Source: a virus. Taken from it: a stretch of 64,000 nt of DNA. Position numbers and translations under genes: made by a program. The notes below the pieces were generated by a model. It had not been told where the DNA came from. It saw only the letters and a program-made list of their open reading frames with translations, and made no database searches. Positions 30,721 to 43,468 of this stretch are shown here, one piece after another (the first letter of the stretch is position 1; each line of letters opens with the position of its first letter). The stretch lies in IMG/VR virus record IMGVR_UViG_3300043773_000921, positions 1 to 64,000 of that record; one strand, 5' to 3'.

Positions 30721-31227
30721 CTACTTCTTTAACTTGTTAACAATCAATTCTACCAACTCTGCCTTACTTAACCTACCATCGCCATCATCACCCAACAACT
30801 CCAGCAACTCAGCCTTCTTCATCTTACTATAATCAGGCTCTTTCAACACACCAATACTCTCACTCGGAGCAGCACCAGCCTCATCCGCCTCAACAACCTC
30901 ATCCCCAATAACCGGTGCAACATACTTATACCCCCCTATCTTCGGTACAACAAACAACTTAATATCAATACTATCATCATACCTCAAACTCATAGACTGA
31001 CTAGTATGACTAACAACAAAATCATACACACTCTCACTAGGAATACCAGGGCCATCAACAACCATCTTCCCATTAACCTCATAACAGTTCCACCCATCTA
31101 CACCCAACAATCTTCCAACCTCCTCAACTACCCCCGGTACCCGACAATCTTTAGTCGTAACCAAAGTACCCAACTTTACATGACCACCAGCAGCAGTCTT
31201 TACATAATAATTTATCCTTGTCTGCAT
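30721..31227 (-). CDS. Hypothetical protein with C-terminal Rho-N/HeH-like helical domain
   Basis: DYSKMKKAELLELL...LSKAELVELI. First gene of the left arm. Confidence 0.6.
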   Translation of the reverse strand: MQTRINYYVKTAAGGHVKLGTLVTTKDCRVPGVVEEVGRLLGVDGWNCYEVNGKMVVDGPGIPSESVYDFVVSHTSQSMSLRYDDSIDIKLFVVPKIGGYKYVAPVIGDEVVEADEAGAAPSESIGVLKEPDYSKMKKAELLELLGDDGDGRLSKAELVELIVNKLKK

Positions 31228-31260
31228 AATAATATAGTTTTAATAGTGAACGAATAATGG

Positions 31261-31292
31261 CACAATATACACAGATAGTACGTTTTATGCAA
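31261..31292 (-). promoter_or_regulatory. Host sigma70-type promoter driving the left arm
   Basis: Minus strand TTGCAT-17 nt-TATATT(GTG), ending about 35 nt upstream of ATG 31227. Confidence 0.55.
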
Positions 31293-31387
31293 GTTTTTGG
31301 TAGGGGAAAAAGAAAAAAGACGGGAGGGCACTTAATGTATCGTACCCCCGCGTTAAATCATTATCTAACTTTTTAATTTCATGTATT

Positions 31388-31765
31388 ATGAGCAAAGTTT
31401 CATTGGGAAAAGTAAGTGAAATCATTGAAAGAGGTGAGAAAAACTCTCCACTTTTCATGAAAGAAGGAGAACATCTTGTTAAATTGTTGGGAAAAGGCAC
31501 TTGGGGGCAGAAAGCTTCGCAGTGTATCTTGACTGATAAGGGTACCATTGGTGCCTATCAGTTGATAGACCAAATGAGAAAGGATGGTATCCTGGAAGAT
31601 TTCCTGGACGAAGCAGAGTTTGTGTTTGAAACTGGTGAAGAGTTATTCGTCACCATAAATGCAAAAGCTGTAGTAGAAACTCGACTTCCTGACGAAGAAG
31701 AAGAGGAGGAAGAAGACGAAGAAGAAGTCGTCGTCGTCAAGAAGAAAACTTCTACAAAGAAGTAA
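31388..31765 (+). CDS. Small acidic protein with poly-Glu tract and Lys tail, first gene of the plus arm
   Basis: 125 aa ending DEEEEEEEDEEEVVVVKKKTSTKK, followed by a strong terminator. Confidence 0.75.
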   Translation: MSKVSLGKVSEIIERGEKNSPLFMKEGEHLVKLLGKGTWGQKASQCILTDKGTIGAYQLIDQMRKDGILEDFLDEAEFVFETGEELFVTINAKAVVETRLPDEEEEEEEDEEEVVVVKKKTSTKK

Positions 31766-31772
31766 GAAAGAT

Positions 31773-31801
31773 CCCTGCGCCTTCGGGCGTGGGGTTTTTT
31801 T
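31773..31801 (+). terminator. Rho-independent terminator
   Basis: CCCTGCGCC-TTCG-GGCGTGGGG followed by T7, with a cUUCGg tetraloop. Confidence 0.9.
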
Positions 31802-31887
31802 CAGATGTGCCTACTACTGTTAGTAAGAGGCACAACTATTAGATAATGATTTACATATAGCGTTGACTGTCAGACTGTTAGTGCTAT

Positions 31888-31903
31888 TGTTCCACGTGGA
31901 ACA
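31888..31903. promoter_or_regulatory. parS: parS centromere-like site (perfect 16-bp palindrome)
   Basis: TGTTCCACGTGGAACA, intergenic, matches the chromosomal parS consensus TGTTNCACGTGNAACA. Confidence 0.85.
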
Positions 31904-32060
31904 TGATAGAGGAAAGGTGTGAGTGGCTACCATCTGCTGCGCATTACTCTACTCTACATCACATCGCACAACTCTATTAGTGTTATACATACTGATACTG
32001 TGAGTGATTGCGTGGGTTTTATTATAGGTGAGATTATTAACAATCAAATATATTATTATT

Positions 32061-32354
32061 ATGGAGAGTACATTCAGTGTATATCAAGTCAGGACATATA
32101 ACTATAATAGCAGAGAGCATAGCTTAGATCTTTCTTACAGCACATTAGACAAAGCCAAAGAAAGATTATTTGAATACTGTGAGAGTAAAAATACTCACAC
32201 GGAAACTGTTGACCTGGAAGGTAGGTGTGAAACATATCCTCATAATGAGGATGTTGATAACTGGATAAGTAGAGGAAAAGCGTCAATATATTATTTTTCT
32301 AAATATGGAAACTACAAATGTGTAGTTTACGTACAGGAAATATTTGTGTATTGA
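32061..32354 (+). CDS. Hypothetical early protein
   Basis: ORF with an AT-rich leader. YSTLDKAKE is a common phage small-protein motif. Start reassigned to ATG 32061. Confidence 0.65.
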   Translation: MESTFSVYQVRTYNYNSREHSLDLSYSTLDKAKERLFEYCESKNTHTETVDLEGRCETYPHNEDVDNWISRGKASIYYFSKYGNYKCVVYVQEIFVY

Positions 32355-32361
32355 TTTCATT

Positions 32362-32430
32362 GCGGGCATGCTATTGTAGTGTGCCTGCTTATTATATTTA
32401 TTTACTGCCTCCGATATAATGTTGTAGGCA
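32362..32430 (+). promoter_or_regulatory. Two tandem intergenic hairpins (TGCCT/AGGCA family)
   Basis: GCGGGCATGCTA-TTG-TAGTGTGCCTGC and TGCCTCCGATA-TAA-TGTTGTAGGCA-TTT. Confidence 0.5.
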
Positions 32431-32458
32431 TTTCTTTAACACTTAAAAAACTTTACTA

Positions 32459-32707
32459 ATGAAAAACTTGTCAAAAAAACATTTGCTTCGCTGGCTTATG
32501 GATCAGCAGCACAAGTTCACTCAAGGCAATAACCTCGAGGAGACAGAACTTATTGTAGGATACTTTAACGGTGTATTGAGTGCAGAGTTTATATGCCGTA
32601 ATGGCTATGGCTCTGTATGGAGTACTAACAGATATTTGTCTGTTAAGTGTCCGAAATGTTTTACTCATTTGTTTGCGGACAATAGTCCAATAACATTTGA
32701 TTTATAA
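32459..32707 (+). CDS. Hypothetical early protein (CxxC)
   Basis: 82 aa ORF. Confidence 0.6.
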   Translation: MKNLSKKHLLRWLMDQQHKFTQGNNLEETELIVGYFNGVLSAEFICRNGYGSVWSTNRYLSVKCPKCFTHLFADNSPITFDL

Positions 32708-32716
32708 GATTTACAA

Positions 32717-32970
32717 CCTGAGTTTACAGGTGCGAGGATAGTATGTACTATCCGTTATTAACAATTATTTATAACCATTAAATGTAATCCCGTAAGATTA
32801 CAACTACTATGAGCTTTTAAGCAAAAGTAAAGTGCCTTTTAGTACGTTGAGTTCCTTAAGTCCTAGGCAAGGTCTATTCGATATTGAATAGTAGGGTAAG
32901 ACTCAACCAGGTATTCTCATTATCTGCCACAAAACAAGTTCCTAATCCTATAAGAGAAATGGATGGGAAC
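32717..32970 (+). ncRNA. Candidate structured non-coding RNA or cis element
   Basis: ORF-free gap with several stems: GGATAGTA/TACTATCC, TGTAATC/GATTACA, nested GTTGAGT/ACTCAAC and GTTCC/GGAAC. Confidence 0.35.
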
Positions 32971-33049
32971 ATTTTAAAACAAATATTATTATAAAACAAG
33001 TATGCGTGTAGAGCTCGAGCACGTGTAAGGATGACAAGAGTATATAGTT

Positions 33050-33289
33050 ATGTGGGTAACACAAAATCAAATGGATGATACTACATTGAACAAAATGTTT
33101 AGTCGTTGGAATCAAGCATTAGCTAATGGAGAGATAACTGACATTGATAATACTACAGAAATGTGGTATGGTGAGTTAGTTATGACACACGAAGATGGTA
33201 TAGATTATATAACAGCACCTATACAGAAATATGATAAAGAAGGGTATATAGATTTTGTTGTTAATGTTTCAATACCATTTGAAATATGA
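33050..33289 (+). CDS. Hypothetical acidic early protein
   Basis: 79 aa ORF. Confidence 0.6.
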   Translation: MWVTQNQMDDTTLNKMFSRWNQALANGEITDIDNTTEMWYGELVMTHEDGIDYITAPIQKYDKEGYIDFVVNVSIPFEI

Positions 33290-36873: not shown

Positions 36874-36888
36874 ATTATTTTATAACCT

Positions 36889-36919
36889 ATGCCTGTAGAT
36901 CTAACGAGTCTGCAGGCAT
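36889..36919 (+). promoter_or_regulatory. Intergenic TGCCT/AGGCA-family hairpin
   Basis: ATGCCTGTAGA...TCTGCAGGCAT followed by TTT. Confidence 0.55.
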
Positions 36920-43407: not shown

Positions 43408-43420
43408 ATATTATTTCACT

Positions 43421-43450
43421 ATGCCTGCACAAGGAAACTGTGTGCAGGCT
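43421..43450 (+). promoter_or_regulatory. Intergenic TGCCT/AGGC-family hairpin upstream of parB
   Basis: GCCTGCACA-AGGAAACTG-TGTGCAGGC followed by TACTTTTT. Confidence 0.55.
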
Positions 43451-43468
43451 ACTTTTTAAACTATTTGT

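Follow-up and report, generated by a model that had tools for sequence, protein, structure and literature searches.

The long-term coexistence of crAss-type phages, which lack lysogeny genes, with their hosts still calls for an explanation, and the use of a host centromere would offer a concrete and testable mechanism. The stretch of DNA analyzed here, hereafter the window, comprises the first 64,000 bases of the 88,548-base IMG/VR virus record IMGVR_UViG_3300043773_000921 (G000), and contains at 31888-31903 a perfect 16-bp palindrome with the exact spelling of a chromosomal-type parS, the docking site of the partition protein ParB. Has this palindrome been selected or does it match parS by chance, and, if it has been selected, which protein reads it? 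Our results indicate that the palindrome very probably has a function and that ParB probably docks there, the ParB of the host appearing a likelier binder than the ParB-fold protein encoded by the phage itself (P0001). We tentatively favor, at slightly under even confidence, the reading in which the 16-mer is a selected host-type docking site, embedded in an early regulatory block and bound by the host's own ParB.

The palindrome, its frequency in viral contigs and its use in Bacteroidota

31888-31903, unstranded: perfect 16-bp palindrome TGTTCCACGTGGAACA, exact chromosomal-type parS spelling

A first-pass annotation of the window had described an intergenic, perfect parS-type palindrome at this position, and the description is accurate. 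The palindrome TGTTCCACGTGGAACA is exact and non-coding (the longest open frame crossing it has 42 codons), is the sole match in the window even when up to three mismatches are allowed, and is the single perfect 16-bp palindrome of the record, in which the pattern TGTTNCACGTGNAACA is matched once, at 31888-31903, with no mismatch. By simple arithmetic, 4 of the 65,536 possible 16-bp palindromes fit that pattern. The site lies 88 bp past the terminator of a + strand gene (31388-31765), inside the 297-bp gap that separates this gene from the following + strand open reading frame (ORF). Perfect palindromes are scarce in the record when compared with Markov-1 random genomes (one of 16 bp where 2.4 are expected; three of 14 bp where 9.2 are), and CACGTG occurs in four copies against about 9.5 expected from composition; both depletions are consistent with avoidance of restriction-type sites. 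The record contains no repeated family of palindromes with arms of 7 or 8, and one 12-mer, TCTTTATAAAGA, is present twice.

The arithmetic expectation for an exact match in a single window of this length is 64000/4^16 = 1.5e-5. The chance of about 1e-5 quoted in the first-pass annotation is correct in that setting and understates the base rate in a large scan, where 66 IMG/VR contigs hold a control palindrome, matched in composition and with the central CG swapped to GC, and at least 120 hold the parS 16-mer, for a raw enrichment of about two-fold or more. The two palindromes differ sharply in where they fall. Of the 123 parS sites listed (at least 120 loci), at least 41 fall outside every open frame of >=100 codons, and the control palindrome does so at 3 of its 66 sites (Fisher p 3e-6, odds ratio 10.5; loci L009-L128 versus L151-L216, parS sites listed). 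Because the non-coding share separates parS (41/123 among those listed) from the control (3/66), chance rarely accounts for an exact parS in the non-coding DNA of a viral contig, and probably does not account for the site in the window. A ParB gene was detectable by tblastn with four queries in 1 of the 120 viral parS loci listed, meaning that a parS carried by a phage seldom has a phage ParB close by.

Distant relatives of the phage suggest a host phylum in which the same sequence is used. Terminase, portal and major head protein are present (portal and head by PHROGs), and the terminase matches 144 GenBank phage records, all at less than 60% identity, the best 12 of the 144 being Crassvirales at 26-30% identity. 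The hosts named among the terminase matches listed (Bacteroides, Flavobacterium psychrophilum and Candidatus Azobacteroides) are all Bacteroidota. In a sample of 151 Bacteroidota genomes, 10 contain the same 16-mer and none the reversed control; three of these 10 carry two copies, 37 bases to 1.9 kb apart. A Flagellimonas genome carries two exact copies separated by 1.9 kb, and two Flavobacterium genomes contain clusters of TGTTYCACGTGRAACA variants. The palindrome is hence a spelling in use on the chromosomes of the presumed host phylum, in agreement with the first-pass annotation, which had called it the canonical chromosomal parS. Since Bacteroidota chromosomes use this spelling, a host ParB would be expected to recognize the phage site.

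The phage is a virulent-looking lake phage, distantly related to the crAss phages of the gut: apart from the possible source sample, sequencing runs containing at least 0.76 of the words of the stretch belong to three lake or freshwater metagenome studies (X2-X4), and no RNA dataset figures among the listed runs that contain it. The record is probably near full length because one relative, with direct terminal repeats, measures 87,877 bases; the CheckV estimate is 62%. The rightward arm encodes DUF3846 and Sipho_Gp157 proteins, a glucosaminidase, an Erf-like annealing protein, the long ParB, RadC and an SPL-like radical-SAM protein, together with a weak, sub-threshold match to SSB. Among the proteins scanned between 33405 and 51433, DNA polymerase, primase and helicase were not recognized, and a giant ORF at the right end (2,856 residues within the window) has no sequence match in the PDB.

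The first-pass annotation had placed the palindrome about 600 bp from a divergence point and had located a switch in GC skew there too. The distance is upheld by the gene map, in which leftward genes occupy the sequence up to 31227 and rightward genes take over at 31388, so that the switch from - to + strand (31228-31387) lies about 500-660 bp to the left of the palindrome. The skew is explained by gene orientation: its sign flips at the strand switch and flips back at about 51.4 kb, where gene direction turns again, and because of this reversion it provides no independent origin signal. A replication origin was likewise considered and discarded, the skew minimum coinciding with the gene-strand switch and reversing at 51.4 kb, with no DnaA boxes (up to one mismatch) in 31700-32100.

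The presumed regulatory block and its retention in relatives

31766-32030, unstranded: conserved non-coding block between the first + strand gene and a region of variable gene content
31856-31909, + strand: longest invariant run of the block (54 bp) across four distinct sequence types, spanning the predicted promoter and the palindrome
31863-31890, + strand: sigma-70-like promoter match by consensus, TTGACT-16 nt-TATTGT, with an upstream TG
31773-31800, + strand: intrinsic terminator of the gene at 31388-31765, with a 9-bp stem, a TTCG loop and a T run
31388-31765, + strand: P0002, first gene of the + arm, 125 residues with an acidic tail, no family found
31354-31368, unstranded: left arm of a perfect inverted repeat of 15 nt that flanks P0002 (100% complementary, arms 470 nt apart)
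31839-31853, unstranded: right arm of this inverted repeat, located 10 bp before the putative -35 element
31817-31980, + strand: four direct CTRTTAG heptamers, starting at 31817, 31836, 31875 and 31974

The exact 16-mer is in place in all five related contigs that cover the site (G001, G002, G003, L130 and L133), which are 91-94% identical to the window genome-wide and which, together with the window, amount to only four distinct sequences. The local picture is more telling than this overall retention. The core of the block (31850-31999) keeps 46-50 of 50 bases per bin in three relatives, while P0002, on its left, drops to 30-36 of 50 per full bin in G001 and G002 (less where unaligned; flanks 46-50 of 50), and the segment from about 32050 to 33285, on its right, has no counterpart in these two genomes. 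The block, well kept between a diverged gene and a missing segment, thus forms an island of conserved non-coding DNA amid gene turnover.

Within the block, columns 31855 and 31910 vary among the sequence types and zero variable columns lie between them. The palindrome begins with the final three bases of the predicted -10 hexamer and would cover approximately -9 to +7 of the predicted promoter, that is, an operator position. The promoter role of 31863-31890 is putative: the surrounding 2 kb contains 7 sigma-70-like matches against 7.1 expected in shuffles, so the prediction is a consensus match only. In the crAss-like phage phi14:2, middle promoters resemble -35/-10 elements and are read by the host RNA polymerase (10.1101/2020.03.07.982082). 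We also considered an N4-style hairpin promoter for a virion RNA polymerase and found no support for it; the same source describes phi14:2 early transcripts without a common upstream motif (10.1101/2020.03.07.982082).

Use of the terminator hairpin is directly supported by a paired change, from C:G to T:A, at 31780/31787 of its stem in the G001 and G002 types. The heptamers are concentrated in the block, where 4 of the 17 + strand copies of CTRTTAG in the record fall within 164 bp. The arrangement around P0002, a diverged gene set between conserved ends and an inverted repeat, looks as if a cassette had been swapped between regulatory ends.

Several further elements were observed in the early arm. 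The segment 32050-33285, replaced or absent in close relatives, behaves as a hypervariable early-gene region, and in G001 the block directly adjoins the homologue of 33285. Upstream of an ATG at 33050, a non-coding element (32997-33045) has about 50 bases identical at positions 163-212 of a distant relative (L134) and is also found in G003; it includes overlapping GAGCTC/CTCGAG palindromes and one of the four CACGTG of the record, and is likely under strong constraint as a promoter or leader. Behind + arm genes, at 32362-32388, 36885-36915 and 43420-43455, stand three hairpins that resemble one another, each reading (ATG)CCTG...CAGGC(AT) with a T run after it; the last lies directly upstream of the ParB gene, and the three look like a shared terminator type.

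Searches for more relatives added little. In IMG/VR, anchors taken from P0001, P0002, the Erf protein and two DNA patterns recovered no contig beyond the same four; no GenBank phage matched at the DNA level or through P0001, and no relative was found in bacterial genome contigs. A metagenome scan contributed two additional close copies and the distant relative L134. Among the 4 of 24 listed sequencing runs that were examined, X10 holds a G003-like copy, X14 a G002-like copy and X8 two short contigs over P0002 only. L134 is syntenic with the window from 33405 on, with a ParB 49% identical to P0001 and other proteins about 30-95% identical. No parS with up to three mismatches occurs in the 18,253 bases of L134 examined, a stretch without an equivalent of the site's place, and this result neither supports nor refutes a role for the site. 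A 170-nt contig from a lake metagenome (X7) matches only 31887-31932, with 7 differences and unlike flanks, and says nothing on the letters of the 16-mer; its upstream flank again reads like a -35/-10 pair, and it possibly represents a more distant relative.

The phage ParB-fold protein P0001

43469-45508, + strand: P0001, long orphan ParB-fold protein of 679 residues, with a ParB N-domain and a helix-turn-helix (HTH) at about residues 60-220

The gene for a ParB-like protein of 679 residues that the first-pass annotation had placed in the rightward arm is a genuine ORF, and its assignment is supported by family profile and fold search, with Pfam below its cut-off (HTH_ParB at E 0.013, 16 bits against 22.6) and no ParB_N match at E<=10 anywhere in the record. 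An exhaustive phmmer search of 1.8 billion representatives returned 17 matches at E<=0.001, of which eight are full-length at 29-84% identity, and the distant ones include proteins that Pfam labels ParB_N, HTH_ParB and ParB_C. In the PDB, the profile of a nine-member family built around P0001 matches Noc (E 3.8e-6) and the parS-bound ParB of Helicobacter (4UMK, 5.7e-5). The AlphaFold model of P0001 (predicted local distance difference test score 78.6) has ParB, Noc and KorB as its best Foldseek matches, at about E 1e-6 and probability 1.0 over about 225 N-terminal columns, the KorB structures 8QA9 and 8QA8 among them. In the viral library BFVD, proteins of 520-620 residues named ParB/Spo0J align with the model over 560-660 columns. 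By profile and predicted structure, P0001 is thus a true but remote member of the ParB/Noc/KorB fold.

The remainder of the protein, a mostly helical C-terminus of about 450 residues, has no family assignment, with Atlas scores of at most 0.80 and PDB fold matches confined to the N-terminal 225 columns. A role for P0001 as an activator of T-dioxygenase, as described for certain ParBs in PMC13229309, was also rejected: those ParBs lack a DNA-binding domain, and no dioxygenase appears among the 28 proteins scanned with Pfam.

The N-terminal region keeps part of the ParB signature. In the positions that we take to be boxes I, II and III, Q65-P66 (box I, QPI) and E121, N122 and R125 (box III, ENxxR) are invariant in all nine family members, while box II reads G81-Y-T83-R84 in place of GERR, with one arginine retained; G81, T83 and R84 are invariant and Y82 is F in one member. 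The N-terminal ParA-binding motif of ParB, given as [LFI]G[KR]G[LFI] in PMC12704722, is found in 0 of the 9 members, P0001 included.

The residues that would touch DNA depart from the ParB pattern. As presented in PMC7383237, Caulobacter ParB contacts parS through Q162, G170, K171, S172, N178 and R204, common with Noc, and through the ParB-specific R173 and G201, R173 bonding guanine 1 of parS; the specificity positions 173, 179, 184 and 201 read R-T-A-G in ParB and Q-K-K-R in Noc, which reads the Noc-binding site (NBS). Mapped through a HMMER alignment to Noc at about 20% identity, and therefore uncertainly, P0001 has L, G, I, S, S and T at the six shared contact positions that this source lists, so that G170 and S172 alone are retained, and V-L-A-S at the specificity positions. 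The recognition helix, GISVNRATSLRKIA, is the most variable stretch of the N-terminal region in the nine-member family, and differs at four positions in L134. Within the limits of so remote an alignment, this argues that members of the family recognize different sequences and that P0001 does not follow the canonical mode of parS reading.

The first-pass annotation had seen no ParA ATPase or integrase in the window, an observation that extends to the whole 88.5-kb record: AAA_31 and CbiA give no match at E<=10 (controls positive in 14/14 genomes; actin- and tubulin-like partition NTPases were not searched), and neither do Phage_integrase and Resolvase. With ParA and the ParA-binding motif both absent on testing, the locus is not a complete ParABS system.

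Candidate binders and comparison with known systems

In the mechanism that we infer for the favored reading, host ParB dimers would recognize the palindrome on phage DNA that enters the cell or replicates there, shut as cytidine triphosphate (CTP) clamps and then spread, giving the phage DNA a host centromere mark and, with it, access to ParA and SMC; non-integrated phage genomes would thereby be kept and distributed to daughter cells. The predicted core promoter that would serve the variable early genes is overlapped by the site, so that ParB occupancy would also block it. A fuller version of this scheme, in which host ParB, ParA and SMC would treat the unintegrated genome as a mini-chromosome with its early promoter silenced, while the long phage ParB would act as a competitor or release factor that starts lysis, strikes us as unlikely at present.

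Several observations weigh against docking of the host ParB. The host phylum is presumed from distant relatives only, part of the non-coding parS matches in IMG/VR are perhaps host or plasmid DNA filed as viral, the phage carries one site where phi29 carries five, and a non-lysogenic phage would profit from segregation only as a persisting episome. The first-pass annotation had proposed searching related genomes for the 16-mer, and its presence in five of five close contigs is weak evidence because these relatives are only 6-9% diverged. Identity in the block (89-93% over 31801-32030) is about the genome median, with 55-64% of genome windows equally or more conserved, and the chance of finding 16 unchanged columns within the block core is about 1/3 (arithmetic from the alignment); with block identity of 0.89-0.93 only about the genome median, conservation was set aside as a strong argument. 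Further afield, 0 of 8 classified Crassvirales genomes (phi14:2, crAss001, crAss002 and five others) carry parS with up to one mismatch. The site is lineage-specific and therefore cannot account for the persistence of Crassvirales in general.

The favored reading competes with three others. The palindrome may be a promoter or operator for another phage or host regulator, or part of the initial transcribed region, its match to parS being coincidental. This is possible but doubtful. The 16-mer is conserved no better than the 38 bp that precede it, the invariant run at 31856-31909 is the size of a promoter footprint, and the four CTRTTAG heptamers and the 15-nt inverted repeat suggest other binders in the block; a few chance non-coding matches are expected, since the control palindrome occurs 66 times in IMG/VR and is non-coding in 3, and chance alone would be expected to give a genome at least one perfect palindrome of 16 bp (mean 2.4, Markov-1). 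Set against these points, an unrelated operator would rarely be spelled so as to fit TGTTNCACGTGNAACA, which 4 of 65,536 palindromes do, non-coding parS exceeds the non-coding control in viral contigs by at least 41 to 3, and the spelling is one in use in the presumed host phylum. A separate proposal, that the block is an early non-coding RNA or structured leader with the palindrome as a hairpin inside it, we regard as highly improbable. The + strand at 31800-32040 folds slightly better than shuffles (z -2.16, with 4/200 shuffles as good), the palindrome makes its own 6-bp hairpin in the predicted fold, and in phi14:2 long stretches between genes, close to where the early arm begins, are abundantly transcribed (10.1101/2020.03.07.982082). 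The - strand fold, on the other hand, has a z of 0.02, and transcription from the predicted promoter, if it is real, would start inside the palindrome and halve the hairpin. A known RNA family was rejected after Rfam gave no useful match on 31000-33000 (best Prevotella-2, 29 bits against a cut-off of 72), as was conserved RNA structure, with compensatory changes in 0 of 54 predicted pairs across four sequences.

The first-pass annotation had allowed for binding either by the host machinery or by the phage's own ParB. In the second case P0001 would use the palindrome as a single loading or operator site, in the manner of KorB and without ParA, and would shut the early promoter or coat and organize the phage DNA. 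The ParB N-domain and HTH fold (profile E 4e-6 to 6e-5, Foldseek about E 1e-6), the invariant residues of boxes I (QPI) and III, the location of the gene in the same arm, 11.5 kb downstream of the palindrome, and the operator position of the palindrome relative to the predicted promoter all fit this view, as does the commonness of long orphan ParBs in phages (PMC12704722). The DNA-reading residues do not: at about 20% alignment identity, K171, R173, N178, R204 and Q162 correspond to I, V, S, T and L in P0001 and the R-T-A-G of ParB to V-L-A-S, its box II is GYTR rather than GERR, and a recognition helix that is the most variable of the family, with four changes in L134, points to different targets and no shared canonical parS. 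The single palindrome, with no repeated family, is also unlike KorB and its operators. We accordingly consider binding by P0001 unlikely, and of the two options left by the earlier annotation the host appears the likelier, given that the parS-contact residues of the phage protein are mostly replaced and its helix is variable.

If the host ParB does dock at this site, the lineage would constitute a clean single-site case for non-lysogenic persistence, and the mini-chromosome version, if true, would show how a carrier state could have a genetic basis when lysogeny genes are absent. The implications may extend beyond this phage. Among the matches listed, non-coding host-type parS is about 7 times commoner in viral contigs than the control palindrome, with a ParB nearby in almost none, and because of this excess and of the ParB gene found in 1 of the 120 loci listed, the borrowing of a host partition protein, so far described for phi29, may be widespread among phages. 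Even if P0001 proves not to bind, the site gives one long, uncharacterized phage ParB a candidate DNA context.

Known partition and repressor systems resemble the locus in part. Extrachromosomal mycobacteriophages reportedly carry ParABS partition cassettes. In the P1 plasmid prophage, too, phage DNA is maintained by a ParB-parS pair (PMC12704722); plasmid prophages of this kind are temperate and have their own ParA and their own parS spelling, whereas here there is no ParA and no integrase and the spelling is that of the host. The chromosomal ParABS centromere of Bacteroidota has the identical 16-mer (10/151 genomes), with variants in Flavobacterium, and differs in that the phage has no parAB operon or ParA and holds a single copy rather than a cluster, in a regulatory block rather than an origin region. 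KorB of plasmid RK2 is a ParB-fold CTP clamp that represses at promoter palindromes (OB) without ParA, and the palindrome described here would likewise occupy an operator position; KorB has many operators, whereas here there is one palindrome, no repeated family, and the spelling of a chromosomal parS instead of OB. Noc, too, is an orphan paralogue of ParB whose recognition helix has changed, and is the best PDB sequence match of the P0001 family; it differs from P0001 in specificity residues (Q-K-K-R against V-L-A-S) and in lacking the roughly 450 extra C-terminal residues. The long orphan ParBs of uncultured phages modeled in BFVD are similar in length (520-620 residues, aligned over 560-660 columns) and unlike P0001 in sequence (12-14% identity).

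The closest parallel is the virulent Bacillus phage phi29. As recounted in PMC2731898, phi29 has five parS sites and the host Spo0J helps to segregate its genome into the prespore, while host Spo0A represses its early promoters. The idea of the first-pass annotation thus has a precedent; for crAss-like phages, no report of a parS was found in the literature searched. Both phages, phi29 virulent and the present one virulent-looking, carry a host-type parS and no ParA (PMC2731898), and lysogeny genes are absent here too. They differ in that phi29 has five sites against one here and exploits spore entrapment in a Firmicute, while Bacteroidota do not sporulate; in addition, the site described here overlaps a predicted promoter, the phage adds an orphan ParB-fold protein, and the action of the host partition machinery is proposed from sequence. 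What would be new is phi29-type use of a host parS by a crAss-related phage, in another host phylum and through a single site at a predicted promoter.

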